Assembly (NCBI GenBank): GCA_963692865.2
Contig: OY843592.1
Coordinates: 3,488,001-3,552,000, forward strand
Direction: 5' to 3'
Source of the DNA: a bacterium
GTDB lineage: Bacteria > UBA8248
DNA: 64,000 nt
Shown here: positions 410 through 55,461 of the stretch, piece by piece
Numbering within the stretch: position 1 is the stretch's first letter
Layout: every line of letters begins with the position of its first letter
Position numbers and translations under genes: made by a program
Notes under the pieces: generated by a model
Seen by the model: the letters and a program-made list of their open reading frames with translations, nothing else
Database searches by the model: none
What the model was told of the DNA's origin: nothing

Positions 410-3400
410 ATGTCGGAACAAAACCCGGCGAGCGCGCTTCGCGCATATCGCCGTGAGGTGGAACAGGCGCACGCGACCGGGCAGGCGACCGAGCACAGCT
501 ATCGGCCCGCACTCAAGTCGCTCATCGAGACTTTGGGCGGCGATGGTGTCCTCGCACTGAACGAACCCGCGCACGTCGCCTGCGGCGCGCCTGATTTCAT
601 CGTCGAGCGGAGCGATGTCCCCATAGGCCACATCGAATGCAAGGACGTCGGCCTCAATCTGGATCGCGTCGAAATCGACGATCAGTTGAAGCGCTACCGA
701 AAGGGCCTGCCGAATCTCATACTCACGGATTACCTGGAGTTTCGCTGGTTCGTGGAAGGAGAAATACGCGAAACGGCGCGTTTGGGGCGCATTGACGCCC
801 AAGGCAATATCGCGGTGGACAGGGCAGGCTCTGAAAAGGTCAAGGCGTTGCTCGGCGCATTCTTCGAGGCTGATCCGCCTTCCATCAACAGCCCGCGCGA
901 ACTCGCCGAACGCATGGCGGCCAAGGCGCGCCTGTTGCGGGACGGCATCGGACGCATTCTTGAACGCGGCGATCAGGCGGGTTCGCTGCGTGAATTGCTG
1001 GAGGGCTATCGCAACGTTCTGATCGCCGGTCTCTCGACGGAGGAATTCGCCGATTTACAGGCGCAGACCGCCGCCTACGGTTTGTTCGCGGCGCGCTGCC
1101 TCCACGATTCCCAGGCGGAGCCGTTTACGCGCCAATCCGCCGTGTTCACGGACACGACGCCGTTTTTGCGCGACCTCTTCGGCCGCATTGCCGGTCCCGG
1201 CATCGACCCCCGCCTTGCGTGGATCGTGGACGATCTGGCGTTGTTGCTGAAGCGGGCGGACATGGCGGCGATCCTCGCCGATTTCGGCGGACGAACGCGG
1301 CGGGAAGACCCGGTGGTGCATTTTTACGAGGATTTTCTGGCCGCCTACGATCCGGGGCTGCGCGAGACGCGCGGCGTCTACTATACGCCGGAACCCGTGG
1401 TTTCCTATATCGTGCGGAGTCTGGATCGCCTGCTTCGCGCCCGCTTCGATCTGGCGGACGGACTTGCGGATACCGCAGCAATCACGCTCGAAACGCCCGA
1501 CGGCGGAGGGGCGTCGAGTCCGAGAGTGCTGATTCTCGATCCCTCGGCGGGCACGGGCACCTTCCTGCGAGAAACAGTCGCCACGATTCGCCGAACGATT
1601 GAGGAGAAAGGACTGATCGGCGCCTGGCCCGATTACGTTCGGAAACATCTTTTGGAGAGGTTGTTCGGCTTCGAGTTGCTGATGGCTCCCTATGCGATCT
1701 GCCATCTCAAGCTCGCGCTCGAAATCGGCGGCGCGGACGCCGGGTTCAGAATGCCGGACGGCCAGCGTCTCGGCATCTTCCTCACCAACACGCTGGAAGA
1801 GGCGCACGAGAGAACCAGCGACCCGTTGTTCGCTTCCGAGATATTGCGCGAGGCGGCCAGCGCGGACGCCGTGAAGCGCGAGAAGCCCGTGATGGTGGTG
1901 CTCGGCAATCCTCCCTATTCCGGCCACTCCGCCAACAAGGGAGCGTGGATCAGGGCCTTGTTACGGGGAGACGGAGCCGGAGCGGCCGGCAGTTATTTCC
2001 ATATTGATCGGCAATCAATCGGCGAAAGGAATCCCAAGTGGCTGAACGATGATTACGTCAAGTTCATCCGCTTTGCGCAGTGGCGGATAGAGCGCACCGG
2101 CGAGGGCGTTCTCGGCTTTGTTACAAATCACGCCTATCTCGATAATCCAACTTTTCGGGGAATGCGCCGCAGTTTGATGGAAACTTTCGATGAGATATAC
2201 CTGCTCGACCTGCACGGCAACGCCAAGAAGAGAGAAAAGGCGCCGGATGGTGGGAAGGACGAGAACGTGTTCGACATTCAGCAGGGCGTCGCCATCGGTC
2301 TTTTCGTCAAGCAGGGTGAAACTGCCGACACTCCGGCGCGGGTATTTCATACCGATCTTTGGGGCGCGCGGGAAGCCGGGCCGGACGGTGGCAAATACGG
2401 CTGGCTGGCCGCCAACGACGTCGAAAGCACCAAATGGACGGAGCTCTCGCCCAAATCGCCTCTTTACCTTTTCATTCCGCGCAACGAAGAACTGGCCGGG
2501 GAATACGAGAAGGGCCATAAACTCACCGCAATTTTTCCCGTCAATTCCGTCGGAATCGTAACGGCGCGCGACAGGCTGGCGATTCAGTGGACGGCGGACG
2601 ATATGTGTCGGGTCGCCGAGGACTTCGTTTCGCGTGATGCCGAAGATGCAAGAAACATTTTTGCGCTCGGCAAGGATTCCAAAGATTGGAAAGTCGTAGA
2701 TGCACAACAGGACATACGAGACCATTCCGAAGTGGATCAGCGGACCACGCCCGTACTATATCGACCATTCGATACTCGGTTCACTTATTACACTGGTCGG
2801 GCTGGCGGCTTCATTTGCCGTCCTCGTCCAAATGTCATGCAGCACATGCTGGCCGGGCCGAATTTGGGTCTCTCAAGTACCAGATCGACTGAAATAGCCG
2901 GGGGCTGGGAACACGTTTTTATCTCACGAACTATTACTCAACATCACACGGTATCGCTGAAAGAAGTAAATTATCTCTTTCCTCTCTACCTCTACCCGCG
3001 GGAAACCCCATCGGATGCCGGTCAGGCGCGTGAGCCGAATATCGACAGGGAGTTTGCCAAGGCAGTCGCTTCCGCCGTCGGCCTCGAATTCGTCTCCGAG
3101 AACAAGGGCGATCTCGCGGCCACATTCGGGCCGGAGGATTTGTTTCACTACATCTACGCCGTGCTTCACAGTCCCGAATACCGCCGCCGCTATGCGGATT
3201 TTCTGAAATCGGATTTTCCAAGGGTTTCATTCACAACAGACCGCGCGCTCTTCGCCGCTCTCGCCGGCATCGGCGCGCGCCTCGCCGCCCTTCACCTGAT
3301 GGAAGCCGATGCAGGCGATAAGCCCGCCTTTCCGCGCTCAGGCGACAACCGGGTGGATAAAGTGCGCTATGCGCCGCCTTCCAAGGACGCGCCGGGCCGT

Positions 3401-3634
3401 GTGTGGATCAACGACGCGCAGTATTTCGAGGGCGTGTCGCCGGAAACTTGGGCCTTTACCATCGGCGGCTACCGCCCGGCGGAGAAGTGGCTGAAAGACC
3501 GCAAGAACCGCGTCCTTTCATACGACGAAATCGCCCATTACGCGCGAATCTGCGCGGTCTTGGCCGAAACGCCCAGGGTCATGGTCCGCATCGACGAAAC
3601 GATTGAGGCGCACGGCGGCTGGCCGCTCGCTTGA
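410..3634 (+). CDS. Fused restriction endonuclease / N6-adenine methyltransferase (Type IIG-like, with Type ISP-like C-terminal specificity domain)
   Basis: N-terminal PD-(D/E)xK-like PDF...IECK; GVYYTP; SAM motif I ILDPSAGTGTF; catalytic GNPPY; C-terminal YRPFD, DFPRV, IGGY..AEKWLKDRK. ATG at 410 after a purine-rich RBS-like stretch preferred over the ORF start at 269. Confidence 0.88.
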   Translation: MSEQNPASALRAYRREVEQAHATGQATEHSYRPALKSLIETLGGDGVLALNEPAHVACGAPDFIVERSDVPIGHIECKDVGLNLDRVEIDDQLKRYRKGLPNLILTDYLEFRWFVEGEIRETARLGRIDAQGNIAVDRAGSEKVKALLGAFFEADPPSINSPRELAERMAAKARLLRDGIGRILERGDQAGSLRELLEGYRNVLIAGLSTEEFADLQAQTAAYGLFAARCLHDSQAEPFTRQSAVFTDTTPFLRDLFGRIAGPGIDPRLAWIVDDLALLLKRADMAAILADFGGRTRREDPVVHFYEDFLAAYDPGLRETRGVYYTPEPVVSYIVRSLDRLLRARFDLADGLADTAAITLETPDGGGASSPRVLILDPSAGTGTFLRETVATIRRTIEEKGLIGAWPDYVRKHLLERLFGFELLMAPYAICHLKLALEIGGADAGFRMPDGQRLGIFLTNTLEEAHERTSDPLFASEILREAASADAVKREKPVMVVLGNPPYSGHSANKGAWIRALLRGDGAGAAGSYFHIDRQSIGERNPKWLNDDYVKFIRFAQWRIERTGEGVLGFVTNHAYLDNPTFRGMRRSLMETFDEIYLLDLHGNAKKREKAPDGGKDENVFDIQQGVAIGLFVKQGETADTPARVFHTDLWGAREAGPDGGKYGWLAANDVESTKWTELSPKSPLYLFIPRNEELAGEYEKGHKLTAIFPVNSVGIVTARDRLAIQWTADDMCRVAEDFVSRDAEDARNIFALGKDSKDWKVVDAQQDIRDHSEVDQRTTPVLYRPFDTRFTYYTGRAGGFICRPRPNVMQHMLAGPNLGLSSTRSTEIAGGWEHVFISRTITQHHTVSLKEVNYLFPLYLYPRETPSDAGQAREPNIDREFAKAVASAVGLEFVSENKGDLAATFGPEDLFHYIYAVLHSPEYRRRYADFLKSDFPRVSFTTDRALFAALAGIGARLAALHLMEADAGDKPAFPRSGDNRVDKVRYAPPSKDAPGRVWINDAQYFEGVSPETWAFTIGGYRPAEKWLKDRKNRVLSYDEIAHYARICAVLAETPRVMVRIDETIEAHGGWPLA

Positions 3635-3742
3635 GTCGCGCCTCGCCTGGATGAACGCGCCCGCCGTTATAGTCGTTATCAATCAACACGCATTCGGCTT
3701 GCGCCCGAAAAGCCCTCAATCCGCTCATCGAAAACGATGCGG

Positions 3743-4408
3743 TCAATCGACTCCCATCGATGCCAGAAATCGTATCTTGTCCCGAAAATAACAAAAACTG
3801 GGCGATTCGTTCTTTTCTATATCCATGACCGGCGAAATGTTATCGGCCCATTTCGACTTTTCCATTCCTACGGCCTGCCATCCATTTTTCTGTAAAGCGA
3901 CTACTCCGCCGGGATAAACGGCGTCGGCCAGGGTTTCCCAAGTGCCGCAAATCGAATCCTTCACATAGTTATCGAGTATCGTCTTTTTGGCATTTGGGTA
4001 GGCCCGCATGACCGCCGCAAGATCGCCTAGTAACCAAGCCTCTCCTTCTTCTATTGCAAAGCAGAAATTGGTTTTCGGTTTCGGGTGAATGGCGTTCAAA
4101 AGATTGATAAGCTCGGCGCGAAATTCCTTGTGGCACTTGTCGTCGAGATCACAGACAAAGATCAGCGCAGCGGAATATCCGGGCGGATGATTAGAGAATG
4201 TCCGCCCATACGCTCTCAGCAGACGAGGAAGTTGATCGAGCAGGATGCGTTTCCAAGGATCAGTCTTTGGCACAAGGCCTTTGGGGAGTCGCCCGATACC
4301 CTTGTAAAAGATGACTTTGCAGGTATGTTCGTCTCCAATGATTTTAGGAACGATGACATCCAGCATTCTTTTGCCTGATTGGTCCTCGACCAGAATTTCA
4401 AAGTGCAC
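3743..4408 (-). CDS. DUF4276-like / TOPRIM-like protein, partner of the upstream ATPase
   Basis: GTG start 4 nt after the ATPase stop; ILVED (TOPRIM-like Glu), CDLDD (DxD), IEEGEAWLLGD, C-terminal NESPSF. Confidence 0.72.
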   Translation of the reverse strand: MHFEILVEDQSGKRMLDVIVPKIIGDEHTCKVIFYKGIGRLPKGLVPKTDPWKRILLDQLPRLLRAYGRTFSNHPPGYSAALIFVCDLDDKCHKEFRAELINLLNAIHPKPKTNFCFAIEEGEAWLLGDLAAVMRAYPNAKKTILDNYVKDSICGTWETLADAVYPGGVVALQKNGWQAVGMEKSKWADNISPVMDIEKNESPSFCYFRDKIRFLASMGVD

Positions 4409-4412
4409 CCGA

Positions 4413-5684
4413 TTACTTTCCGTCCAAATAGTCGCTGTACCACAGCCCCCCCAAAGGAAGCCCTTCGGCAACCAGATTCGTTATCGCCTCATCTTCGCTG
4501 GCGCGCCTTACCTTTGCGAAACCATCGTCACCTTTTTCGAGTATCCAGACTTCCTCGGGGTCGAGAGCATCGACAAAATATGGCTGATGCGTGGTGATGA
4601 AAACCTGCGACCCGCCTCCTTTTCCGGTAGCATGAGCGCGAAATTCTTGAGCCAGCGTCTCGAGTAATTTGTGGTACAAGCCGTTTTCCGGTTCCTCGAT
4701 ACACAAGAACGGCGGTGGCGAGGGATCTTCGAGCAATAGAAGATATGCGAAAACCTTCAACGTCCCATCCGACATTTGCTGGGCGTAGAATGGATCCTCA
4801 AACCCCTTGTCGTTGAACCGCAGCAGCAAACGGCCGTCGGGCGTTCGTTCGGTGTCGATTTGATCTACTCCCGGAATCTTCTCCGCTATGCGCGTCAAAA
4901 TAGACTGAAATCGTTTGGGGTGCTCCCTCTGCATGAATTGGACGACGTTTCCAAGGTTATCGCCATGAATGTTCAGGTGCTTTTGGGGACCGGCGAGCGG
5001 CAGATCCCGAGCCGCGTCCGGAGTGAAATAGCTTAAATACCAATCCTCAATGAAACGCCGAAAGGCTGCGATTCGAGGATGCTGCTTCAACGAACCCAGC
5101 GTCGCTATGCCGAGATGGCCGGCGTCATCGAGTTCGACGGCTTCTTGTTCCGGCGATTCACTCAACTCCGTATCCGGAATCTGTGTTCCTGAGATGTCAT
5201 CGTCATCATTGATGGTATTAAGAGCCTCTTCGCCCTTCCAGGCGACGCCTCGGCCACCTTCGAGACGCAAGAACGAGAAAGGACGACCGCGCCCTTGCCC
5301 CTTACGTCTTTGCCGGAGGCGCTCGCTTGAGACGAATGGCCGCCCTTGTTGCTCGTCAATGGACAATTCGTAGGTAATCGGGCGGGAGTTGCCTTGCTGT
5401 CGATAATATATTTCGAACCGAATCGGGTCGGTTAGCCCTTGCGTGCGAAGGCGTTGAAATCCTCCGCGCCCACGGGAATCGCACGCTTCCTCGACACCGG
5501 ATTTCAACGCATCGGCCAGAAAACCCAAAGCATCGAAGATGGTGCTTTTCCCGACGCCGTTCTTGCCGATGACCGCCGTCATGGGCGTTAAGGGATCGAT
5601 TTGCTGAGTATTCCAGAGCTTGCCGAGCGTTACGTCTTTGAGAACGCGATAATTTTCGATGCGAAATCCTTCAATTGTCGCCAT
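4413..5684 (-). CDS. ABC-type (AAA_21 / RecF-SMC-like) ATPase
   Basis: N-terminal FRIENYR strand, Walker A GKNGVGKS, signature MSDGTL, Walker B CIEEPENGL, H-loop ITTHQP. Confidence 0.88.
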   Translation of the reverse strand: MATIEGFRIENYRVLKDVTLGKLWNTQQIDPLTPMTAVIGKNGVGKSTIFDALGFLADALKSGVEEACDSRGRGGFQRLRTQGLTDPIRFEIYYRQQGNSRPITYELSIDEQQGRPFVSSERLRQRRKGQGRGRPFSFLRLEGGRGVAWKGEEALNTINDDDDISGTQIPDTELSESPEQEAVELDDAGHLGIATLGSLKQHPRIAAFRRFIEDWYLSYFTPDAARDLPLAGPQKHLNIHGDNLGNVVQFMQREHPKRFQSILTRIAEKIPGVDQIDTERTPDGRLLLRFNDKGFEDPFYAQQMSDGTLKVFAYLLLLEDPSPPPFLCIEEPENGLYHKLLETLAQEFRAHATGKGGGSQVFITTHQPYFVDALDPEEVWILEKGDDGFAKVRRASEDEAITNLVAEGLPLGGLWYSDYLDGK

Positions 5685-5948
5685 GACAACAGTCTCCGCC
5701 TCCGAAAAAAATCGCACCCTTTATTATTGCTTGCCCTGAATCCTGGCCTGGCGAATCGGTGCTTTCGCCCTATCGGAACTAAATCATCGCTCACGACTCG
5801 GCCATAGTCTCATATCAGAACGATGCATAGAATAGCCGGTATCGCCTCACACAGGATTCCGAAACCTCTATAAGTTTCCAAGGCGAGGCCAACCCTCTCT
5901 TTTACGGCCTGCAACAAACAGCTATCGCACTTCCCGAACCGCCCCCCC

Positions 5949-6929
5949 CTACACACTCACCCCCAGCGCCTTCTTCGCGGCGTCGACGACGTTGGTTGTG
6001 TTGGGGAGAACGAAGTCCTCGAGGCGGGGCTCGAAGGGGATGGGCGCGTCGAGGGCGGCCACGCGGCCGATGGGGGCGTCGAGGTAGTCGAAGGCTTCCT
6101 CCTGGACGGCGGCGGATATCTCCGAACCCACGCCGCTCCTGAGATGGCCTTCCTCGACGATGATGCAGCGGTTCGTCTTGCGGACCGATTCGGCGAGCGT
6201 CTCGGTGTCCAGCGGGGCCAGGGTTCTCGGGTCGACCACTTCGGCGCTGACGCCCTCCTTGGCGAGTTCATCCGCCGCCGCCAGGCAGTTGTGCACCTGG
6301 TAGCCCACGCCGATGAGGGTGATGTCGGCGCCCTCGCGCTTCACGTCCGCCTGCCCGAAGGGGGTTACGTGCTCGCCCTCGGGAACGGGGCCCTTCATCT
6401 TGTAGAGCATCTTGTGCTCCACCATGAGCACGGGGTTGTCGTCCCGGATCGCCGCGCACATGAGTCCTTTCGCATCCGCGGGGTCGCTCGGCGCCGCCAC
6501 CTTGATGCCCGGAATCTGCATGAACCAGGCCTCCAGGCACTGGCTGTGCGTGGGGCCGTACTGCACGCCGCCGCCGCCGGGGGTGCGCACGACCAGGGGC
6601 ACGCTCAACTGCCCGCCCAGCATGTAGCGCAGCTTGGCCGCCTGGTTGATGAGCGGGTCCATCGCCAGCATGATGAAGTCCATGAACATGATCTCGACGA
6701 TGGGCCGGTAGCCCGCCATGGCGGCGCCCACGCCGGCGCCCACGATGCCGAGCTCGCTTATGGGCGTGTCGCGCACGCGGTCGCGCCCGAACTTCTCCGC
6801 GAGTCCCTTCGTCACGCCGAAGACGTAGGCCAACTCCACGTCCTCGCCCATGACGATCACGCGCTCATCCCTCTCCATCTCCTCGTGATGGGCTTCGGTC
6901 AACGCATCCACAAAAGTGATCTCTCGCAT
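5949..6929 (-). CDS. TPP-dependent 2-oxoacid/acetoin dehydrogenase E1 beta subunit
   Basis: MGEDV, DTPISE, EIMFMDF, HSQCLEAWF, DPRTLAPLD, LDAPIGRV motifs. Confidence 0.92.
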   Translation of the reverse strand: MREITFVDALTEAHHEEMERDERVIVMGEDVELAYVFGVTKGLAEKFGRDRVRDTPISELGIVGAGVGAAMAGYRPIVEIMFMDFIMLAMDPLINQAAKLRYMLGGQLSVPLVVRTPGGGGVQYGPTHSQCLEAWFMQIPGIKVAAPSDPADAKGLMCAAIRDDNPVLMVEHKMLYKMKGPVPEGEHVTPFGQADVKREGADITLIGVGYQVHNCLAAADELAKEGVSAEVVDPRTLAPLDTETLAESVRKTNRCIIVEEGHLRSGVGSEISAAVQEEAFDYLDAPIGRVAALDAPIPFEPRLEDFVLPNTTNVVDAAKKALGVSV

Positions 6930-7078
6930 GTCGCCTCTCTCCAGTGTTTTTATTCAAGCGCACCGCGCCGGGGGACGGGGTTTTCCAGAGAAATTATATA
7001 CTTCTGTCGACAACTCCTTTTTGGCCGGTCAATTCACAATTCCTTCTCGAAAACAACTATCTGCCGCCCGGGCTTTTT

Positions 7079-7424
7079 TCACTCCCCCCTTGCAGAGCGC
7101 CAACCGACCACTCTCCACTTTCCGGGACTGGCCTCCATGCCTGTTCTGCTACGCAAAACGCGATGGCATTGTAGGGGCCGCATATTATGCGGCCCTGCCT
7201 TTTCGCCCTCACAACACGGGTCGCATGATATGCGACCCCTACACTCCGAATACGGGATGATGAAACACGGCGCTCGCTCCCAGGGTCGGGTTTTTCAACG
7301 ACCGCATAATATGCGTGGGGCGCTCCCAAGGAGGGAGCGCCACCTACAAAAACCGCTCCCTCCCCAGTCGCGTCATATCCTCGTTAATCATCACTTTTCC
7401 AACACTCCCTCAAGGGGGGAGTGA
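7079..7424. mobile_element. MITE-like element with 14-bp inverted ends enclosing REP-like palindromes
   Basis: TCACTCCCCCCTTG (7079-7092) and its exact reverse complement CAAGGGGGGAGTGA (7411-7424); same family as 8803-9006. Confidence 0.65.
7171..7242. repeat. REP doublet (inverted pair of GTAG palindromes)
   Basis: GTAGGGGCCGCATATTATGCGGCCC ... GGGTCGCATGATATGCGACCCCTAC; near-identical arms at 8462-8531. Confidence 0.85.
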
Positions 7425-7441
7425 TTCCATCATTCCCTTCC

Positions 7442-8431
7442 CTAGGCGTATACGTCTTCGAGCGCGGATTCGAGCGTGGCCTCGGGGCTTCCCTCCGCAA
7501 ACGCGATGGCGTCGTTCAATTCCTCGTCCACGGCTTTCAGGTGCGCCTTTTTCTGCGCTTCGGTCAATTTCAGCATATCCGCCGCGATCGTCAGCGGGTC
7601 GCGCTTTCTCCACTCGTCCACCTCTTCCTTCGTGCGGTAGGGGCCGAACTGGGGGTCGCCGCGCGAGTGGCCGAAGAAGCGGTAGGTCTTCGCCTCGATG
7701 AGGCTGGGGCCGCCGCCCTCGCGCGCGCGGCGCACGGCCTCGGCCGTCGCCTCGTAGACGGCCACCACGTCCATGCCGTCCACCGTGAGGCCCGGCGCGT
7801 TGTAGCCCTGCGCGCGCACGCTGATGTCCCTGACGGCCGTTGAGCGCTCCACGTGGTAGCTCACCGCGTAGTGGTTGTTCTCGCAGAAGAAGACGACCGG
7901 CAGCTTCCAGATGGCGCACAGGTTCATCGACTCATGGAAGCTGCCCTGGTTGGACGCCCCGTCGCCGAAAAAGACCACCGCCACGCGGCCCGCGCCTTCA
8001 AGCTGGTAGGCGAGGCCCATGCCCGTGGCCATCGGCATGTTCGCCCCCACGATGGAGTGCGCGCCGTAGTGGCCCTTGGAGATGTCGGCGATGTGCATGG
8101 AGCCGCCCCGCGCCTTGCAGAGGCCGGTGGACTTGCCGAGCAACTCCGCCATCATCTCGGGCATCCGGGTGCCCTTGGCGATGGAGTGCCCGTGGCCCCG
8201 GTGGGTGGTCAGGATGGCGTCTTCGTCGTTCAGTGCCGCGCAGACGCCGACCGAGCACGCCTCCTGCCCGATGCTCACGTGAACCGCCCCCTTCACCCGG
8301 CCCGCCATGAAGAACTCGTCCGTCTTCTCCTCGAAGCGGCGGATGCGCAGCATGTTGCGGTACATCGCGTTCAGGTCCTTTTTCGTCAACCTCTTCGGCT
8401 TCGCCGACCTTCGCTTCGCCCTGGTGGCCAC
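7442..8431 (-). CDS. TPP-dependent 2-oxoacid/acetoin dehydrogenase E1 alpha subunit
   Basis: GQEA, HRGHGH, GGSMH, TPP motif FGDGASNQG...CENN, TYRFFGHS. Confidence 0.93.
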   Translation of the reverse strand: MATRAKRRSAKPKRLTKKDLNAMYRNMLRIRRFEEKTDEFFMAGRVKGAVHVSIGQEACSVGVCAALNDEDAILTTHRGHGHSIAKGTRMPEMMAELLGKSTGLCKARGGSMHIADISKGHYGAHSIVGANMPMATGMGLAYQLEGAGRVAVVFFGDGASNQGSFHESMNLCAIWKLPVVFFCENNHYAVSYHVERSTAVRDISVRAQGYNAPGLTVDGMDVVAVYEATAEAVRRAREGGGPSLIEAKTYRFFGHSRGDPQFGPYRTKEEVDEWRKRDPLTIAADMLKLTEAQKKAHLKAVDEELNDAIAFAEGSPEATLESALEDVYA

Positions 8432-8461
8432 GGCCTCCTCCTTGAGGGTTTGATTTGTTCC

Positions 8462-8531
8462 GTAGGGGCCGCATATTATGCGGCCCGCCTTGTGGGGGCG
8501 AAAATCAGGGTCGCATGTATGCGACCCCTAC
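8462..8531. repeat. REP doublet, second copy
   Basis: GTAGGGGCCGCATATTATGCGGCCC ... GGGTCGCATGTATGCGACCCCTAC with a spacer different from the 7171 copy. Confidence 0.85.
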
Positions 8532-8802
8532 TACGTTCACCTCCTCACTCCTCGCTCGCAGCAATCGCTCCCGCATCGGCCGCGAGAATTCCTCCTTCAT
8601 CAGTCGGAACCCACCCATTCTCTTCAAGTCATATATATGATTCCGTATTTCAGGCTTTTATGAGTATCACATGGCGCGGTGGCGGTTCAATCGGCGCGGT
8701 GGGGGGTCGTTGGAAAAGTCCTGGGAAGCGATTTTGGGTTGCGCGCATGCTTTTGAAGTTCACTCCCCCCTTGAGGGTCATCTCATCACTCGCGAGATAA
8801 AC

Positions 8803-9006
8803 AATCACTCCCCCCTTGAGGGGGAGTCGAAGAGCTAAGGGCGAATGCCCGAAAGCGATTCGGTGGGGGGAGAATTCCGACTGATGAAAGAGGGATTCCT
8901 ACGACCAAGGACAAAGGATTTCCTATAAGAAAAAGTTCCCCCCACCACATCGGCCTTCGTCCATAGGACTCGGCCTCTGTGACTCCCCCTCAAGGGGGGA
9001 GTGATT
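8803..9006. mobile_element. 204-bp MITE-like element with perfect 26-bp terminal inverted repeats
   Basis: AATCACTCCCCCCTTGAGGGGGAGTC (8803-8828) and GACTCCCCCTCAAGGGGGGAGTGATT (8981-9006); each end is itself a hairpin; a partial extra left end lies at 8761-8777. Confidence 0.8.
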
Positions 9007-9077
9007 CTTGCTCATTCATCGGTCGCGTAAAACCTTCGTTCATAGGCACTTTCTAAACACCTCCGCTGAGCGTGCCG

Positions 9078-9752
9078 TCACTCGCGCTTCGCCTTGTAGC
9101 GCAGGAACAGCTCATCACCCTCCCGCCGGACCTCCGCGAGCGTGAGTCCCAGAAACTCGCCCGAGCGGAATCCCGGCCCGTCCATGAGGGTCGGGGCGTC
9201 GGAGCCGCCGGCCAGCCAGGGGGTGAGCGTCACGTGAAATTCGTCGATATATCGGGCGAACTCCCATACCAGGTTTCCGCCGCCTTCGAGCAACACGTTC
9301 TTCATCCCCCCCTCCCCGAGATGAGCCAGCACCTGGCCGGCGAGAGATTCCGCCTCGTTCAGAACGACGATCTGCGCACCGCCGGTTTGGGCTTCACTTA
9401 GGCGGCGCGCGCCCTCCCGCGCCGTGAAAATGAACCGCTCGATCCCATCGGCTGAAAACCAGGGCAGTTTATCGGGGAAAGCGCCGCTTTTCGTGATCAG
9501 CGCGTTCGCCGGGTGCGGCGGCAGGCCGCGTTCCGCGCGCTCGCGGGCGAGGGATTCCTCGCGCACCCTTGCGGGATGCCGCGCCGTCCTGAGCGTCTCG
9601 CCGCCCCATACCACGACGTCCGCACAGGCTCTCAGCCGATCCATCTCCAGGCGATCCGCTCCCGAACCCAGGGAGAAATCCGCGCGGTCGAAACTCGCGA
9701 TTTTCCCGTCGAGCGTCATGGCCAAGTTCGCGTATACGAAGGGCTTCTCCAC
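9078..9752 (-). CDS. RibD C-terminal (pyrimidine reductase / DHFR-like) domain protein
   Basis: AMTLDGKIA, GGETLR, VLLEGGG, DEFHVTLTPWLAGG; no deaminase domain. Confidence 0.85.
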   Translation of the reverse strand: MEKPFVYANLAMTLDGKIASFDRADFSLGSGADRLEMDRLRACADVVVWGGETLRTARHPARVREESLARERAERGLPPHPANALITKSGAFPDKLPWFSADGIERFIFTAREGARRLSEAQTGGAQIVVLNEAESLAGQVLAHLGEGGMKNVLLEGGGNLVWEFARYIDEFHVTLTPWLAGGSDAPTLMDGPGFRSGEFLGLTLAEVRREGDELFLRYKAKRE

Positions 9753-9860
9753 TATAATTCTCGCTCAAGCTTGTGGTGCGCCCGCATAAGGCAGTAAAGT
9801 TTCCTGTCGCCTCGTCTTCATGAACGCGGGGCATTCATCAGACAAAGGAGAGAAAACGAC

Positions 9861-10508
9861 ATGGGCGAATTCGACCAGAGAGTGGACCTTCCGGCGCTCG
9901 ATTTCCAGAAACTCAACATCGGCCCCTACAGCAACAACGTGTACGTCCTCACGTGCAAGGCGACGAAGGAGTGCGTCATCATCGACACCTCCCATTCCGC
10001 CGAGCCGATTCTCGCCGCGTGCGAAGGCGCCGCGCCCAGGTACATTCTACAGACCCATTGCCACGGCGACCACATCGACGCGCTCGACGAGGTGCGCAGC
10101 CGCACGGGCGCGCCCCTGGGCCAGCACGCCGAGGACGCGAAGGAGTTCGGCATCAGCCCGGATTTCACCATCGCGGACGGCGAGGAGATAACCTTCGGCG
10201 AGATCACGCTCAGGGCCATCCACACGCCCGGCCACTGCAAGGGCATGCTGATGTTCCACTATCCGGGCCACTGCGTCTGCGGGGACACGATTTTCCCCGG
10301 CGGCCCGGGAAAGACCTGGAACCACGGGCAACTGCTGACCTCGCTCGATTCCATCGAGAACAAGGTCTTCGCCTTGGCCGACGAGACGGTCCTCTACCCC
10401 GGCCACGGGGCGAACAGCACCGTCGCGCAGAGCAAGGCGGAAGTCGCCCGATTCCGGGCCGCGGGCAGGCCGGGGCCGGACGAATTCGGGGACGTGACCT
10501 GGGACTGA
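9861..10508 (+). CDS. Metallo-beta-lactamase-fold hydrolase (glyoxalase II-like)
   Basis: THCHGDH, HTPGH, GDTIF, YPGHG; GGAG RBS. Confidence 0.9.
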   Translation: MGEFDQRVDLPALDFQKLNIGPYSNNVYVLTCKATKECVIIDTSHSAEPILAACEGAAPRYILQTHCHGDHIDALDEVRSRTGAPLGQHAEDAKEFGISPDFTIADGEEITFGEITLRAIHTPGHCKGMLMFHYPGHCVCGDTIFPGGPGKTWNHGQLLTSLDSIENKVFALADETVLYPGHGANSTVAQSKAEVARFRAAGRPGPDEFGDVTWD

Positions 10509-10586
10509 CGGGCGGGAAAACCATCTGACATCGGCGCGCGCGACAGCTTCGCGCGGCCCCGGAGAATAAGAGACAGGAGCCAAGCA

Positions 10587-10979
10587 ATGAGTTCAGCCGG
10601 CATCGTATTCGATCACGTGCACGTCATCAGCAAGGACCCCGAAGCGAGCGTGAACTGGTTCGTCGAGAACCTCGGCGGCGAACGCGGCGAGGGCGGCGTG
10701 TTCAAGGGCGCGCCGCAGATTCCCGTACAGTTCGACGGCGCGACGGTCATCGTCCGGGGCGAGAGAACGGGCGAGAGCGCGGGGGAGAAGAGCGGCCTGG
10801 AGTGGGGGACGGATCATTTCGCCTTCGAGGTATCGGGGGATTTCGACGCCTATTGTGAAGATCTCAAGAACAAGGGCGTGAAATTCACGGTGGGCCCGGT
10901 GCAATTCAACCCCGCGACGCGCATCGCCTTCATCGAGGCGCCCGACGGCGTCAGCATCGAACTGCTGCAGAGATCATGA
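10587..10979 (+). CDS. VOC (glyoxalase I-like) family protein
   Basis: FDHVHV, DHFAFEV, FIEAPDGVSIEL; GGAG RBS. Confidence 0.88.
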   Translation: MSSAGIVFDHVHVISKDPEASVNWFVENLGGERGEGGVFKGAPQIPVQFDGATVIVRGERTGESAGEKSGLEWGTDHFAFEVSGDFDAYCEDLKNKGVKFTVGPVQFNPATRIAFIEAPDGVSIELLQRS

Positions 10980-11018
10980 AGCCGGAGAGCCTTCCCTCCG
11001 CCCGATGAGGGACCCGGT

Positions 11019-12095
11019 TTGAAGAGAAATACCTTGTTTCACCTCACGCGAATCGCGGCGCCGCCTCTCCTGATAGCGGCGCTCGTCGGGGCGCCCGCGT
11101 TGCCGGCGCATGCGCAGGACGCGCGCGCTCAGGCGCAAGAGGAATTCCCTCCCGAACCGCCCCTGGGCCTCGACGACGTGCCCGTGCCCGAGGACAACCC
11201 CATGACGCGGCCCAAGGTCGAACTCGGGAGGCTGCTCTATTTCGAGAAACGCTTCTCCGGCGACGGGAAGGTCTCCTGCGCGACCTGCCACGCGCCCCGC
11301 CGCGGATTCTCGAACGCGCGCCAGTACGGGACGGGTTTCGAGGGCAGGCTCACGCTCAGGAACGTGCCCACCGTCATCAACGCGGCCTACAACGAGTCCC
11401 AGTTCTGGGACGGACGCGCCGCGAGCCTGGAGGAGCAGGCCAGGGGCCCCATTCTCCATCCGAGCGAGATGGCGTCGAGCGAGGAGAAAATCATCCGCAC
11501 GATCGGGGCGATCCCCGAATACCGGGAGCGATTCGCAGCGGCATTCGAAAGCCCCGGGGTCAGCCTGGAACGAGTCGTTCAGGCCATCGCCGCGTTCGAG
11601 CGCACCCTGCTCTCGGGGAACTCCCCGTTCGACCGCTGGAAATACGGGGGCGATGAGTCCGCGCTCTCGCCCCGCGCCCTCCGGGGGTTCGAGGTCTTCA
11701 TGAAGCGGGGGAATTGCGTGAAATGCCATCTGGTGGATGAATTCAGCGCGCCCTTCACGGACGACAAGTTCCACAACCTCGGCGTCGGGATGGACAAGAA
11801 GCCGCTGCAACTCGGACGAGAGGCGATCACGAAGAAAATCAAGGACCGGGGCAAGTTCAAGACGCCCACGCTCCGCCACGTCACCCAGACGGCGCCCTAC
11901 ATGCACGACGGCCGCTTCGTATCGCTTGAGGAAGTCGTCGATTTCTACGACAAGGGCGGCCACCCGAACCCCCACCTCGACCCGGACATGAAGCCCCTCC
12001 AGCTCACGAAGACCGAGAAAGAGGACCTGATCGCCTTCATGGGCGCGCTCACGGGCGACCTCCCCGAGGTCAAAACCCCCGAGTTGCCGAAGTGA
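11019..12095 (+). CDS. Periplasmic di-heme cytochrome c peroxidase superfamily enzyme, MauG/MbnH type
   Basis: Signal peptide (AHA-Q); CATCH and CVKCH; FWDGR; PSEM; FKTPTLR; TAPYMHDG...VVDFY. Confidence 0.88.
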   Translation: MKRNTLFHLTRIAAPPLLIAALVGAPALPAHAQDARAQAQEEFPPEPPLGLDDVPVPEDNPMTRPKVELGRLLYFEKRFSGDGKVSCATCHAPRRGFSNARQYGTGFEGRLTLRNVPTVINAAYNESQFWDGRAASLEEQARGPILHPSEMASSEEKIIRTIGAIPEYRERFAAAFESPGVSLERVVQAIAAFERTLLSGNSPFDRWKYGGDESALSPRALRGFEVFMKRGNCVKCHLVDEFSAPFTDDKFHNLGVGMDKKPLQLGREAITKKIKDRGKFKTPTLRHVTQTAPYMHDGRFVSLEEVVDFYDKGGHPNPHLDPDMKPLQLTKTEKEDLIAFMGALTGDLPEVKTPELPK

Positions 12096-12160
12096 GGCTT
12101 TTTCGGCAAACTCATCTTCGACGCCACCCAAGGTGATTCGGAGGATCAAGGACCTTCCGC

Positions 12161-12880
12161 ATGACACGCATGAAAAAGCTTTTCCCCCTCGCGCTCACGG
12201 GCGTTCTGTCCCTCCTGCTCACGTGCGCTCATTCCCGTGGCGCGGAGGTGGGCGAGGGAAAATCCCTTTTTCAGAACAACAACTGCGGAAGCTGCCACAC
12301 GCTGAAAGGCCCTGAAACCAGGATGCCCCCGCCCGCGCGCCACGGCATAAAAGGCCCCACGCTCTGGTATGCGGGCAGCAAGTTCCGGCCCGGCTTTCTG
12401 GCGAAATGGCTGGCCGAGCCGGAACCTTTCCGCGGCGTCGTCTACGGAACCATGAAGCGCGGCAGATACCCGCACCCCGCCCTTCCCGAGGAGGAGGCGG
12501 CGAAAGTCGCGGCTTATCTGGAAAGCCTGAAAGACCCCGAAATGCCCGTGGGCGTCGTTCCGCGCTGGAAGAAAATCCCCCGAAAAGTGCTCAGGCGCGC
12601 GAGAATCCTGTTCCAGAAGAAACAGCCGTGTTATTCGTGCCACATGGTCTCGATACGAAAGACGGTCTACCGCACGCGCATCGAGGTGGGCGGCCACAGC
12701 GCGCCGAATTTCATAGAGGGGGGCCGCAGGCTGAACCCCGATTTCATCGTCGCCTTCCTCAAGAAGCCTGCGCGCTACAACCCCAACGGCAGGATGCCCG
12801 TGTACGGGGATAAGGCGTTCACGAAGCTGAGCGAGAAGGATTTCATCGCGCTCGCCGCCTACATCGCGAGCTTCAAATGA
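12161..12880 (+). CDS. Periplasmic di-heme cytochrome c (NcgB-like)
   Basis: Signal peptide; CGSCH and CYSCH; internally repeated GPTLWYAGSKF / APNFIEGGRRL segments; C-terminal RMP. Confidence 0.82.
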   Translation: MTRMKKLFPLALTGVLSLLLTCAHSRGAEVGEGKSLFQNNNCGSCHTLKGPETRMPPPARHGIKGPTLWYAGSKFRPGFLAKWLAEPEPFRGVVYGTMKRGRYPHPALPEEEAAKVAAYLESLKDPEMPVGVVPRWKKIPRKVLRRARILFQKKQPCYSCHMVSIRKTVYRTRIEVGGHSAPNFIEGGRRLNPDFIVAFLKKPARYNPNGRMPVYGDKAFTKLSEKDFIALAAYIASFK

Positions 12881-13305
12881 AGTTTCACTCTCTCGCAAGA
12901 AGGCTGATTCTCGCCCTCGCAATGGCGGCGACGGGCGCCCCCCTCCCGGCAGGCGCGGAGGAGCCTGCAAGCCGCGTGAGCGCGCAGGAGAACTTCCGCT
13001 GGTACTGCATCCAGTGCCACGGCCCCAAGGGAGACGGCAAGGGGGTCAACAACACCAGGAAGCTGCCCGTGAACCCACGCAACCTCACCGACGGGAAGGA
13101 CATGGCCCAGTTCTCGGACGAAGACATGGTGCGCACCATCACCCACGGGGGCGGGGCGAGCGACCTCTCCCCCATCATGCCGCCGTGGGGCAACGTGTTT
13201 ACAAAACGGGAGATTCGTGATTTGGTGGCCCTGATCCGCAAGATGTGCAACTGCCGCTTCGACCCCAAGGCGAAAGAGGCTTTTCTGAAGCAACAAGGCC
13301 GCTAG
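12877..13305 (+). CDS. Periplasmic mono-heme cytochrome c (NcgC-like)
   Basis: ATGA overlap with the previous gene; signal peptide; CIQCHG..GDG.G; MPPWG distal Met; C-terminal CNC. Confidence 0.85.
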   Translation: MKFHSLARRLILALAMAATGAPLPAGAEEPASRVSAQENFRWYCIQCHGPKGDGKGVNNTRKLPVNPRNLTDGKDMAQFSDEDMVRTITHGGGASDLSPIMPPWGNVFTKREIRDLVALIRKMCNCRFDPKAKEAFLKQQGR

Positions 13306-13315
13306 GTTTCATACC

Positions 13316-14287
13316 ATGCGCGACATGACTCTCCCACTCGTCATCCTCTCTCTTCTGCTCTCGGCGCCCGCTCCAGCGCTCGGGGCGGGCGAGCGGATTC
13401 TCGTCACGAACACGCGCGACGGCACGCTGAGCGTCATCTCGCGCGATACGCACGAGGTCATCAAGACGATCCCGGCGGGCAGGAAGGCGAACCGCCTCTC
13501 GCTCGCGCCGGACGGCCGCCACGCCTACGTCATCAACGACGGCAGCGCCTTCGTGCGCGTATTCGACACGCACACGCTCCAGTTCGTCCGCCGCGTGCGC
13601 GCGGGGCGCGACCCCTACAACCTCGCGTTCTCCCCCGACGGCGCGCTCGCCTATTTCGTGAACACCTATTCGGACAACGTGACGGTCCTGGACATCGCGG
13701 CGCGGAAGATCATCGGCCTCATCAAGCACGGGGGCAACAACCCGGTGAACATCAAGCTGAGCCCCGACGGCCGCCTCGCCTTCGTGGCGAACGAATTGAG
13801 CGAGGACGTCTCCGTCGTCGATCTCGAAACGAGAAAGCCGATCAGGCAGATCGAGGCGGGCCACTACATCGAGGGCATCGACGTGACGCGCGACGGCAAG
13901 CGGCTCTACGTCATGAACGGGGAACGGAACTCCTACAGCGTGGTGGATTTGGAGGCGCTCGAAATCATCCGTACCGTCAAACTCTCCGGCGAGCCGCACG
14001 ACGCCCTCATCACGCCGGACGGGAAATTCCTCTACGTCACCCTGCCGCACAAGAACCGGGTGTCTGTCTTCTCCTTGCCCGCACAAAAGCGCGTCGCCGG
14101 CGTGAGGCAGGGGGTCCGGCCCGACCTCATCGCCTTTACGCCCGACGGCGCGCTCGCCTACGTGACGAACCGCGATTCCAGGGAAGTGTTCGTGATGGAC
14201 GCCAGACGACACCGCAACATCAGGAAAATCCGCGTGGGAAACGGGGCGCACGGCGTGCTCGTCGTGCCGCCCGCGCCGGTGAACTGA
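13316..14287 (+). CDS. Secreted YVTN/YncE-type beta-propeller (about 7 blades)
   Basis: Signal peptide; about 42-aa repeats of the form SPDG..AYVTN....VSV.D. Confidence 0.87.
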   Translation: MRDMTLPLVILSLLLSAPAPALGAGERILVTNTRDGTLSVISRDTHEVIKTIPAGRKANRLSLAPDGRHAYVINDGSAFVRVFDTHTLQFVRRVRAGRDPYNLAFSPDGALAYFVNTYSDNVTVLDIAARKIIGLIKHGGNNPVNIKLSPDGRLAFVANELSEDVSVVDLETRKPIRQIEAGHYIEGIDVTRDGKRLYVMNGERNSYSVVDLEALEIIRTVKLSGEPHDALITPDGKFLYVTLPHKNRVSVFSLPAQKRVAGVRQGVRPDLIAFTPDGALAYVTNRDSREVFVMDARRHRNIRKIRVGNGAHGVLVVPPAPVN

Positions 14288-14474
14288 GGGTTTTCGCTAT
14301 ATTACGCGCGTCATCCCCTCGAACGAAGAAGCCCCGGGTCGGCCTCAACGTAACGAAGACCATCGCTCATCCCGAACGAGCGGCGCGGGCAATGGCGGAA
14401 GTTGCGTTCCCCTCCCTCATGCGCCATATTCGAGAGACGAGGTTATTTCCAATCCAGACCCGCGGAGAGGAAAA

Positions 14475-14756
14475 ATGACGGAATTTGAAATTGCAACGCT
14501 CGAATTTGCACGTATCGGCCTATGGATTTCTGCGATTCACGCCTTCATATCGCTCATCGTGGGCAGCGTTCAATGTTTTCTCATCATGTTTGGACTGAAA
14601 CAGATGAGCCGCGCTTCGGCAGCCAGAGACAAGCAGCACGAAGAAACCATGGCCGCTCTGGACACCCGACACCGCGAAATCATGGGGGCCCAGGAAGCCC
14701 GCCACCGCGAAAACATGAAGGCCCTGGAAGCCCTGATCGAGAGAACCTCGAAGTGA
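14475..14756 (+). CDS. Small predicted membrane-anchored protein with 11-aa HxxxM repeats
   Basis: GGAGAGG RBS; candidate promoter TTGCGT-17-CATATT at 14402-14430; hydrophobic N-terminal helix; three degenerate 33-bp repeats. Confidence 0.7.
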   Translation: MTEFEIATLEFARIGLWISAIHAFISLIVGSVQCFLIMFGLKQMSRASAARDKQHEETMAALDTRHREIMGAQEARHRENMKALEALIERTSK

Positions 14757-14879
14757 GCGGATAAAAAACCGCCGCTCCGCCTGATTTGCCCGATCATTCC
14801 CCGGCGAGCCGCAATCCTCCGCAACGCGCAGTTTGACTCCGCTCGTTTTCAGGCTCTGTGTCGTACGACTCGGGCCGTA

Positions 14880-15764
14880 TCAAGAACCCTCGCCCGTCGC
14901 GCAGCGAAAGCCGATCTTGTTGTTCGTATAATCGGGGCGACGGTGATAGCGGTTGTGCGCCGTGGCCCAGGCGACCGGACTGCCCCAGGACGCGCCGCGA
15001 ACGACCCTCGTTTTCCCCTTCGCAGGCCCGTGCGGGTCGCGCTCGGCCATTTTCCGGTAGGCTCTCGAACCATAGCGGTCGGCCACCCACTCCCAGACGT
15101 TGCCCGACATGTCGAGCGCGCCGAAGGAGCTCGCGCCCTTCGGGAAGCGGCCCGCGGGAGCGACGCCGGGGAACCCGTCCTTGCCGCCCTTCAGGTTGGC
15201 TCTCATCGCGTCGCGCGCCTCCCCCCAGGGGTAGCGTCTCCCGTCTCCGCCGCGCGCCGCGCGCTCCCATTCCGCCTCGGTCGGCAGACGCCTGCCCGCC
15301 CACCCGCAATAGGCCTCCGCGTCGGGCCAGCTCACGTGGGAGACAGGCTGCGTCGGCGTGGTTTTCCAGCTCGATTTCGGGCCTTCGGGCCGGCGCCAGT
15401 CAGCGCCTCTGGTCTTTCGCCACCCGCCCTTCCCCTTCCTGAGGGAAGCGTCCCACGTCCAGGACCATTTTCGCTTCTCGGCCGTCGTCTTGTAGCCCGT
15501 TTGGGCGACGAAGCGCGCGAAGCGCTCCGCCGTCGCTTCGGTCTCGTCGATCCAGAAGCCTGAGACAAAGATTTTCCGGGGCGGGCGCTCGTCCTTGTCG
15601 CCGGATTTGCTGCCCATCACGAACCAGCCCGAGGGAACGCGCACCAGCGCCGCGCCGTCGAAACCGGATACTTTCTTGCCTGCCTGCTGCGCCTGTACCA
15701 ATGAGCCGGTGCCGCCCAGGAGGCAGGCGATCAGCAGACAAACGAGGCGTCTGGTAGAAAACAT
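14880..15764 (-). CDS. Secreted FGE/SUMF1-fold (FGE-sulfatase domain) protein
   Basis: [43 protein letters not shown]; signal peptide. Confidence 0.9.
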
Positions 15765-22774: not shown

Positions 22775-22852
22775 TGGCGGGGCTGACGGGACTCGAACCC
22801 GCGATCTCTGGCTTGACAGGCCAGCGCGATAACCAAACTTCGCTACAGCCCC
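22775..22852 (-). tRNA. tRNA-Asp(GTC)
   Basis: GGGGCTG acceptor stem, anticodon arm CTGGC-CTGTCAA-GCCAG, GGTTCGAGTCC, encoded CCA. Confidence 0.96.
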
Positions 22853-53584: not shown

Positions 53585-53740
53585 ATGTCCTTGTTTTCCT
53601 TTGTCCTGTTTGAACAGAAAAACGCGCCTTTCCCTGCTCCGACGCTCGCCCGTCTTCGAACGGCCAACCCCCTGTTCGCGCGTCAAGAGGCGCGAGGCGG
53701 TCGCTTTCGCGGCTTGCGGAGCGCGCACCTGAACATATCG

Positions 53741-54107
<367 letters not shown>

Positions 54108-55386: not shown

Positions 55387-55461
55387 TGGTGGGCCCACCT
55401 GGATTCGAACCAAGGACCAGCCGGTTATGAGCCGGCGGCTCTACCGCTGAGCTATGGGCCC
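55387..55461 (-). tRNA. tRNA with CAT anticodon, most likely tRNA-Ile2 (lysidine)
   Basis: GGGCCCA acceptor, GCCGG-CTCATAA-CCGGC, GGTTCGAATCC, CCA; paired 1-72 excludes initiator; acceptor sequence and location after rpoD fit Ile2. Confidence 0.9.

Follow-up and report, generated by a model that had tools for sequence, protein, structure and literature searches.

A cluster of five genes at positions 11019 to 15764 of a 64,000-nucleotide stretch of the genome of an uncultured Nitrospinota-related bacterium (assembly GCA_963692865.2, contig OY843592.1, positions 3,488,001 to 3,552,000; the whole stretch is called the window below) encodes a dihaem enzyme of the MauG type, a dihaem and a monohaem cytochrome c, a seven-blade beta-propeller and a protein with the fold of the formylglycine-generating enzyme (FGE). 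We conclude that this gene set is real, conserved and undescribed, and that it unites an enzyme of a known kind with a widespread cytochrome pair and two lineage-specific proteins. As to function, we tentatively prefer, with somewhat less than even confidence, a MauG-type enzyme that is driven by peroxide or oxygen and served by a dedicated pair of cytochromes, with lineage-specific partners in the propeller and the FGE-like protein.

Five genes for exported proteins

Four of the genes lie on the forward strand and are separated by 65, −4 and 10 nt, as computed from their coordinates. The first (11019..12095) encodes the MauG-type dihaem enzyme of 358 residues (Pfam PF03150, 194 bits); the second (12161..12880) a dihaem cytochrome c of 239 residues from an unnamed, widespread family (Pfam Cytochrom_C, 63 bits); the third (12877..13305) the constant partner of that cytochrome, a monohaem cytochrome c of 142 residues (Pfam Cytochrom_C/Cytochrome_CBB3); and the fourth (13316..14287) a YVTN beta-propeller of 323 residues with seven blades (Pfam YNCE/Lactonase/Cytochrom_D1-type). 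Converging on them from the reverse strand is the gene for the FGE-fold protein (14880..15764; 294 residues; PF03781, 213 bits), which lacks the catalytic cysteines and lies 592 nt beyond the stop codon of the propeller gene, with an open reading frame for 93 residues in between. The haem proteins carry two CxxCH motifs in the enzyme (residues 87 and 233), two in the dihaem cytochrome (CGSCH and CYSCH in the translation) and one in the monohaem cytochrome (CIQCH). All five N-termini are basic and then hydrophobic, like Sec signal peptides, a reading made by eye and not with a predictor. Open reading frames, Pfam matches and an AlphaFold2 model thus agree with the preliminary description of this DNA, which had reported four close genes with 2+2+1 CxxCH sites, a seven-blade propeller and a convergent FGE-fold gene, and the N-termini bear out the signal peptides that it had assigned.

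The GC content of the cluster (0.63-0.66) is the same as that of its surroundings, in a host genome of 4.15 Mb that is 97.4% complete. Close homologues are labelled as belonging to metagenome-assembled genomes of Nitrospinota, Nitrospinaceae or Candidatus Tectomicrobia. A promoter consensus scan of the region returned no promoters, and nine terminator-like sites were found where 6.9 were expected; neither result was better than shuffled sequence. The set had been put forward as a module that was not recognised, and searches of Pfam, NCBIfam and the literature likewise yielded no description of it and no matching characterised operon. The words peroxidase, MauG and propeller have zero occurrences in the text of a comparative genomic study of Nitrospinota that we searched (PMC10839748).

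The dihaem enzyme has tyrosine at the ligand position of the E haem

Over its whole length the dihaem enzyme is most similar to bacterial cytochrome c peroxidases (CCPs), which are its best solved matches in PDB sequence searches and in Foldseek (155-190 bits, 35-37% identity, TMq 0.74-0.76; the AlphaFold2 model has a pLDDT of 88). The scores were 158 bits (TMq 0.73) against 6e1c, 95 bits (27% identity, TMq 0.68) against MauG, 48 bits against BthA and 30 bits against the gamma subunit of hydrazine synthase (5c2v_C). When the C-terminal segment was used alone, 6e1c (47 bits) and MauG became the top solved matches. This segment holds the position of the sixth ligand of the E haem, and passages of two papers give the ligands of that haem as His-Met in canonical enzymes and His-Tyr in MauG-type enzymes (PMC11892367, PMC6405878). 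In alignments with the peroxidases Tyr310 stands in place of the CCP Met, 14 residues past the His of the PYFH motif, and it is aligned with the haem ligand Tyr294 of MauG and with the equivalent Tyr of 6e1c. Conservation of Tyr310 is at least 90% (alignment A3). Because Tyr310 falls at the position of MauG Tyr294, the aligned residues place the enzyme in the MauG type by the criterion of the E-haem ligand, Tyr and not Met, and the assignment made for the first gene in the preliminary description can be kept. Trp130, between the haems, and the distal-pocket stretch FWDGRA...EQ...P...EM are conserved as well. Scores against the NCBIfam models were below the cut-off for both MauG (TIGR03791; 259.4 bits, cut-off 443.85) and MbnH (TIGR04039; 244.3 bits, cut-off 362.85).

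Proteins with this Tyr make up a very large branch, for the most part unstudied, to which the enzyme belongs. A HMMER search returned 22,677 representative clusters of the CCP/MauG family at E values up to 0.001, and among the 150 best representatives 149 of 163 PYxHxG motifs were followed by Tyr at +14. Since the family has so many clusters and Tyr is all but universal among the 150 closest, most of the Tyr branch has received no study. The bis-Fe(IV) state of MauG-type dihaem enzymes ranks with the strongest biological oxidants. Passages of the two papers credit MauG, MbnH and BthA with formation of bis-Fe(IV) and describe them as performing poorly as dye-linked peroxidases (PMC6405878, PMC11892367), and one of the papers states that only two natural substrates are known for the MauG type and calls the activity of BthA cryptic (PMC11892367).

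Comparison with the characterised members shows likeness to several and identity with none. Like MbnH, which is paired with MbnP in copper homeostasis/methanobactin operons (PDB 6e1c), the window enzyme is an exported dihaem protein with Tyr at the E-haem ligand site, but two cytochromes, a propeller and an FGE-fold protein are encoded in its neighbourhood instead, and the 97.4%-complete genome has no match to an MbnP-like protein (TIGR04052). With MauG, which acts on preMADH in P. denitrificans (PDB 3l4m), it shares the Tyr, the Trp between the haems, the Gln/Pro/Glu stretch on the distal side and the Thr-x-Pro belonging to the PYMH motif, and a seven-blade propeller gene lies nearby in the window cluster; the heavy chain of methylamine dehydrogenase (MADH) is a seven-blade propeller encoded in mau clusters. 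Against this stand the 27% identity, a window propeller without Trp and the lack of a match to the MADH light chain (PF02975) in the genome, a weak negative because control genomes were blank too. The canonical CCPs of S. oneidensis (3o5c) and N. europaea (1iqc) are the top overall matches in sequence and fold (190 bits), and an exported enzyme beside c-type cytochromes suits a pair of donor and peroxidase. In contrast to these, the window enzyme has Tyr for the Met ligand of the E haem, and Phe108 occupies the site of the His in the IGH motif of the N. europaea enzyme. That His is the distal ligand of the closed form. BthA from Burkholderia (PDB 6nx0) is a further His/Tyr dihaem enzyme whose substrate is unknown; although it forms bis-Fe(IV), an excerpt of PMC6405878 reports that it still reduces H2O2 with an external donor. 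The same enzyme is said in a section of PMC11892367 to lack the inter-haem Trp and the Ca site, whereas the window enzyme keeps the Trp, and the match between the two is 48 bits.

Some genomes of the genus (L111, 6923-12843; L112) contain two more genes of the CCP/MauG family in tandem, with 37-42% identity to the window enzyme, next to an arsenite-oxidase-like molybdoenzyme (Rieske 3Fe-4S and molybdopterin domains) and a small cytochrome c. This tandem set is absent from the window's genome.

The two cytochromes form a widespread pair

Scanning one genome from each species gave 256 confirmed loci of the dihaem cytochrome family. Neighbourhoods were counted in the best 80 of the 256, which comprise 20 loci of the window lineage (L021-L040) and 60 of other phyla. 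Within the lineage the MauG-type gene lies directly upstream of the dihaem cytochrome gene at all 20 loci, and the monohaem cytochrome and propeller genes lie downstream at 19, the exception being a contig end. In other phyla a homologue of the monohaem cytochrome is encoded directly downstream of the dihaem gene at 55 of 60 loci; three of the five loci without it are contig ends and two are real. An adjacent CCP-family gene is lacking at 49 of the 55 paired loci. The neighbours of the pair elsewhere include a multihaem/EB_dh protein and plain housekeeping genes, among others, and in Alphaproteobacteria (L059, L067, L068 and similar loci, about 7000-12500) the pair is followed by the gene for a 608-residue protein with weak likeness to subunit I of cytochrome bd oxidase and then by three cytochrome c genes. 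The idea that the cytochromes had been borrowed from amine-dehydrogenase or NirK systems fits poorly with these counts, as the pair is widespread in many phyla and stands in other respiratory contexts. The pair may be a general periplasmic electron shuttle, and its description brings to light an unnamed combination of cytochromes that adjoins bc-type complexes, bd-like oxidases and CCP-family enzymes.

A bc-type complex and a CCP-family enzyme occur together with the pair in Desulfobacterota. At six of the 60 loci (L053, L055, L056, L057, L077 and L090; about 700-9400) the pair lies between Rieske/cytochrome b genes and CCP-family genes, in the order sigma factor, anti-sigma factor, Rieske protein, cytochrome b, a protein like the C-terminal part of cytochrome b, paralogous dihaem cytochromes, the dihaem/monohaem pair and the CCP-family enzyme. 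The ligand site of these enzymes, occupied by Met in canonical members and by Tyr in MauG, has Cys, and from their sequence they may be His/Cys-ligated members of the family. In a quick tree the Desulfobacterota genes formed a clade of their own that is sister to Met-bearing representatives and not to the window clade. Because their clade is not the nearest to that of the window, the cytochrome pair appears to have joined a CCP-family enzyme twice.

The dihaem cytochrome marks out a family of its own. Invariant positions of the dihaem cytochrome include Trp69, Lys74, Trp83 and His105 (alignment A1), and its motifs are LW[FY]AGSKF and, in the second domain, an NGRMP with its Met. The monohaem family has a C-terminal CxC just past the cytochrome domain that is conserved across phyla (L043-L069) and is found in the window at residues 126-128 (13250-13270). 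No close solved relative of either cytochrome was found by PDB sequence search, and the ESM Atlas clusters for the dihaem cytochrome bear the label 'cytochrome c domain-containing protein' only. Its second domain is weakly SoxX-like (33 bits against a cut-off of 61; 24 bits against 1h31_B). A match of 37 bits to 6h5l_B was considered as a link to a heterodimer that binds hydrazine synthase and was dropped, as a literature passage identifies 6H5L as a Kuenenia hydroxylamine oxidoreductase structure; the match is a generic likeness among class-I cytochromes.

Joint inheritance and loss of the cytochrome, propeller and FGE-fold genes

Our sample of the phylum consisted of 51 genomes, of which 42 are from the window's family. 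Among the 41 other family genomes the enzyme is present in 37 (E up to 1e-40), the dihaem cytochrome in 35, the propeller in 32 and the FGE-fold orthologue in 34, and 31 have all four. The co-occurrence for which the preliminary description had proposed a check therefore holds in these 31 genomes of the family, and outside the family it is only the cytochrome pair that is widespread. Five family genomes (G015, G048, G047, G054 and G057) are jointly without both cytochromes, the propeller and the FGE-fold orthologue. The enzyme is kept in G015 and G048 and is gone from the other three. In G015 the enzyme gene is followed after 49 nt by a cupin gene, a clean excision of the block, and in G048 an unrelated gene follows an enzyme gene in which Tyr309 and Phe310 are swapped. 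Partial sets occur solely in fragmented assemblies (G005, G017, G042, G044 and G024). We conclude that the cytochrome, propeller and FGE-fold genes make up a block whose members are passed on together and disappear together, and that was not seen without the enzyme. This co-inherited and co-lost set amounts to a short list of candidate partners.

A related arrangement recurs elsewhere in the family. At L014 (67-3629) genes for SoxY, SoxZ, a propeller paralogue, a monohaem cytochrome c and a cysteine-less FGE-fold protein lie in a row on one strand, with identities of 34%, 35% and 38%, respectively, for the last three. At L113 (2739-4696) only SoxY, SoxZ and the propeller recur. Two genera of the family thus have a YVTN propeller paralogue preceded by genes like those for SoxY and SoxZ (Pfam, 59 and 58 bits). 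In a genome of a neighbouring family, G026 (L109, 5818-8777), a MauG-type gene with a product 47% identical to the window enzyme lies beside a gene for a metallophosphoesterase and one for a cytochrome of the SoxA/TsdA type.

The propeller and the FGE-fold protein are lineage-specific

In its AlphaFold2 model (pLDDT 92.5) the propeller is built of 28 strands, arranged in seven blades of four. Orthologues, 56-94% identical, were found only in the window's bacterial family, a census that rests on genome searches; the next relatives among the matches listed are generic YVTN propellers of at most 39% identity. Among solved structures the top match, at 277 bits and TMq 0.87, is 1l0q, the YVTN propeller of an archaeal S-layer, and the second is the beta subunit of hydrazine synthase (140 bits, TMq 0.75). 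Scores were below the cut-off for the propeller associated with catabolism dependent on pyrroloquinoline quinone (TIGR03866; 233.2 bits, cut-off 287.3) and for the MADH heavy-chain model (30 bits, cut-off 454). The blades carry conserved polar residues at matching positions (KANR, DPYN, NPVN, IEG, PHD, RPD and AHG), and this repetition in the sequence suggests a ligand-binding face. The translation contains no Trp and no Cys. The propeller is therefore not a substrate of the kind that is converted to tryptophan tryptophylquinone (TTQ), cysteine tryptophylquinone (CTQ) or kynurenine, nor a Cys-type FGE substrate. It is equally unable to carry a TTQ- or CTQ-type cofactor itself, and the parallel with amine dehydrogenases drawn in the preliminary description was taken too far. 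A complex prediction for enzyme residues 41-358 and propeller residues 24-323 gave a score of 0.00, which, coming without control runs, counts neither way.

The FGE-fold protein scores 154 bits against human FGE and 62 bits against PvdO. The copper-binding C336 and C341 of human FGE are aligned to Ser and Ala, and both catalytic cysteines are also missing in all nine aligned orthologues. The host genome has four FGE-fold genes and three sulfatases, and to judge from the residues at these positions it is unlikely that sulfatase maturation is carried out by the convergent copy. An exported protein with the FGE-sulfatase fold and without the Cu-binding cysteine pair resembles pFGE/SUMF2 (1y4j), PvdO, NirV and Tsi3, a class whose members serve as binding or accessory proteins according to the part of a preprint on which we draw (bioRxiv 10.1101/2021.05.21.445229). 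The window protein is nearer to true FGE than to PvdO, and the genes examined around it offer no nirK, pyoverdine or type VI secretion context. NirK (TIGR02376) is also missing genome-wide, the best score in the 97.4%-complete genome being 43 bits against a cut-off of 296.3. The absence of NirK and MbnP that had been noted for the window thus extends to the genome, and with no nirK over the cut-off the cluster is not the displaced accessory set of a nirK locus.

A possible peroxide- or oxygen-driven module and its alternatives

The explanation that we prefer for this gene set is a periplasmic module centred on the His/Tyr-ligated dihaem enzyme, for which the oxidant would be H2O2, or O2 together with electrons. 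The dihaem and monohaem cytochromes c would be dedicated redox partners that link the enzyme to the respiratory chain in the membrane, and electrons would pass from quinol and a bc-type complex to the cytochrome pair, from there to the dihaem enzyme and finally to peroxide. The propeller and the cysteine-less FGE-fold protein would work alongside the cytochrome pair, either binding substrate or acting as a scaffold. Tyr310, the conserved Trp and distal pocket, the persistence of the cytochromes as a pair and the reduction of H2O2 by BthA all support this explanation, as do the apparent double union of the pair with CCP-family enzymes and the joint presence and loss of the genes in the family.

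Several observations weigh against it. Outside the family a propeller gene stands beside the cytochrome pair at none of the 60 loci, and FGE-like matches are found near the pair at two of the 60, several kb away. A section of PMC11892367 describes MauG-type enzymes as poor peroxidases, and simple detoxification is for that reason not an obvious role. The explanation also assigns no defined job to the propeller or to the FGE-fold protein. A single deletion of contiguous genes would yield the same pattern of joint loss whether or not the products work together, and because across the family synteny is just as strong for the housekeeping genes on either side (ribD, MBL-fold, VOC, cupin and CoA-transferase), synteny alone is weak evidence of coupling; the phyletic pattern is more informative. 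Finally, three of 37 enzyme orthologues (G011, at L021 5867-6931; G050; G056) have an in-frame stop, which was confirmed for G011, and G011 and G050 retain the dihaem cytochrome, propeller and FGE-fold genes despite it. These stops could be sequencing errors or decay.

A second explanation, which we regard as unlikely, is that a neighbouring protein, be it one of the cytochromes or the FGE-fold protein, undergoes oxidative modification by the MauG-type enzyme, in the way that preMADH is modified by MauG and MbnP by MbnH, and that the matured block is a new periplasmic oxidoreductase from which the cytochromes carry electrons out. According to passages of two papers, the bis-Fe(IV) state is formed by each of the three His/Tyr enzymes studied so far, two of which act on a partner protein encoded nearby and modify it (PMC6405878, PMC11892367). 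The phyletic pattern is nested, the block never occurring without the enzyme gene in well-assembled genomes, and the invariant Trp69 and Trp83 of the dihaem cytochrome and the conserved CxC of the monohaem cytochrome are residues of the right kind for modification. However, the propeller, which would be the obvious candidate partner, has neither Trp nor Cys, and the genome has no MbnP match and, subject to the weak control mentioned above, no match to the MADH light chain. In addition, because 49 of the 55 pairs have the same conserved cytochrome residues without an adjacent CCP-family gene, the conservation of these residues is independent of such an enzyme, and G015 and G048 keep the enzyme after the loss of every candidate substrate. 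A related and likewise unlikely proposal is that the two cytochromes, the propeller and the cysteine-less FGE-fold protein constitute an undescribed periplasmic oxidoreductase, for which the MauG-type enzyme either installs a protein-derived cofactor in one of them or is itself the catalytic haem subunit. On that proposal preMADH and MbnP would be joined by a third natural substrate system of MauG-type enzymes.

It is also possible, though we doubt it to a similar degree, that the genes are not one system, the enzyme being a stand-alone periplasmic peroxidase, with or without the cytochromes, and the propeller and FGE-fold genes being unrelated neighbours kept by synteny. The region from ribD to the CoA-transferase gene is wholly syntenic across the family, G015 and G048 have retained the enzyme although the block is missing, and propeller paralogues occur in other contexts such as that of SoxY and SoxZ. 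The spacings of −4 and 10 nt, in contrast, tie the monohaem cytochrome to the dihaem cytochrome and to the propeller, partial sets are restricted to fragmented assemblies, and L014 repeats the propeller, monohaem cytochrome c and FGE-fold genes on one strand.

Likeness to hydrazine synthase raises a further alternative, an improbable one in our view, in which the propeller and the dihaem enzyme form a complex of the beta-gamma type that is fed by the cytochromes and acts on a small nitrogen or oxygen species such as NO, hydroxylamine or peroxide. Hydrazine synthase's beta and gamma subunits and their fused homologues outside the anammox bacteria resemble the cluster in combining a YVTN-type propeller, a CCP-like dihaem protein and c-type cytochromes, and fusions of propeller and CCP related to hydrazine synthase are widespread, according to the portion of PMC12758564 consulted. 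Hydrazine synthase beta is the second solved match of the window propeller in both sequence and fold, and the propeller scores 175 bits against the NCBIfam hydrazine_beta model (cut-off 560). Its far better match to 1l0q (277 bits), however, makes this likeness generic. For the enzyme, the hydrazine_gamma model (cut-off 625) gives 44 bits and 5c2v_C gives 30, the window genes are unfused, and Trp130 stands where gamma has His144, a residue described in a passage of PMC12758564. No match to the alpha subunit was found among the ten genes scanned around the cluster, the genome not having been searched with the alpha model.

The least probable of the alternatives, and one we rank low, is a Sox/Tsd-related module for the oxidation of sulfur compounds, for which speak the weakly SoxX-like second domain of the dihaem cytochrome (33 bits), the propeller paralogue after SoxY and SoxZ in L014 and L113, and the 47%-identical enzyme of G026 beside a metallophosphoesterase and a SoxA/TsdA-type cytochrome, but against which speak a SoxX score below the cut-off of 61, an enzyme with Tyr and not the Cys ligand of SoxA/TsdA, the lack of a SoxY match in the window's genome, and a tblastn search of the same genome with SoxY and SoxZ of L014 and the proteins of L109 that returned nothing.

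Neighbouring genes and other features of the window

Upstream of the enzyme gene, on the same strand, Pfam identifies an MBL-fold GloB-like hydrolase (9861-10508) and a VOC/glyoxalase-fold protein (10587-10979), neither of which has a signal peptide. Loss of the downstream block leaves both genes in place next to the MauG-type gene (for example at L104 and L110), and they are probably mere neighbours. The open reading frame between the propeller and FGE-fold genes (14475-14756, forward strand) encodes 93 residues with one hydrophobic membrane helix and a repetitive charged tail. It has no Pfam or NCBIfam match, and tblastn found zero to three tandem copies of it in relatives (L002-L012, L021-L029); it probably lies outside the system. 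The window also contains, on the reverse strand, an RNase P RNA (53740-54104, 315 bits) and genes for tRNA-Asp (22775-22852) and tRNA-Met (55387-55461).

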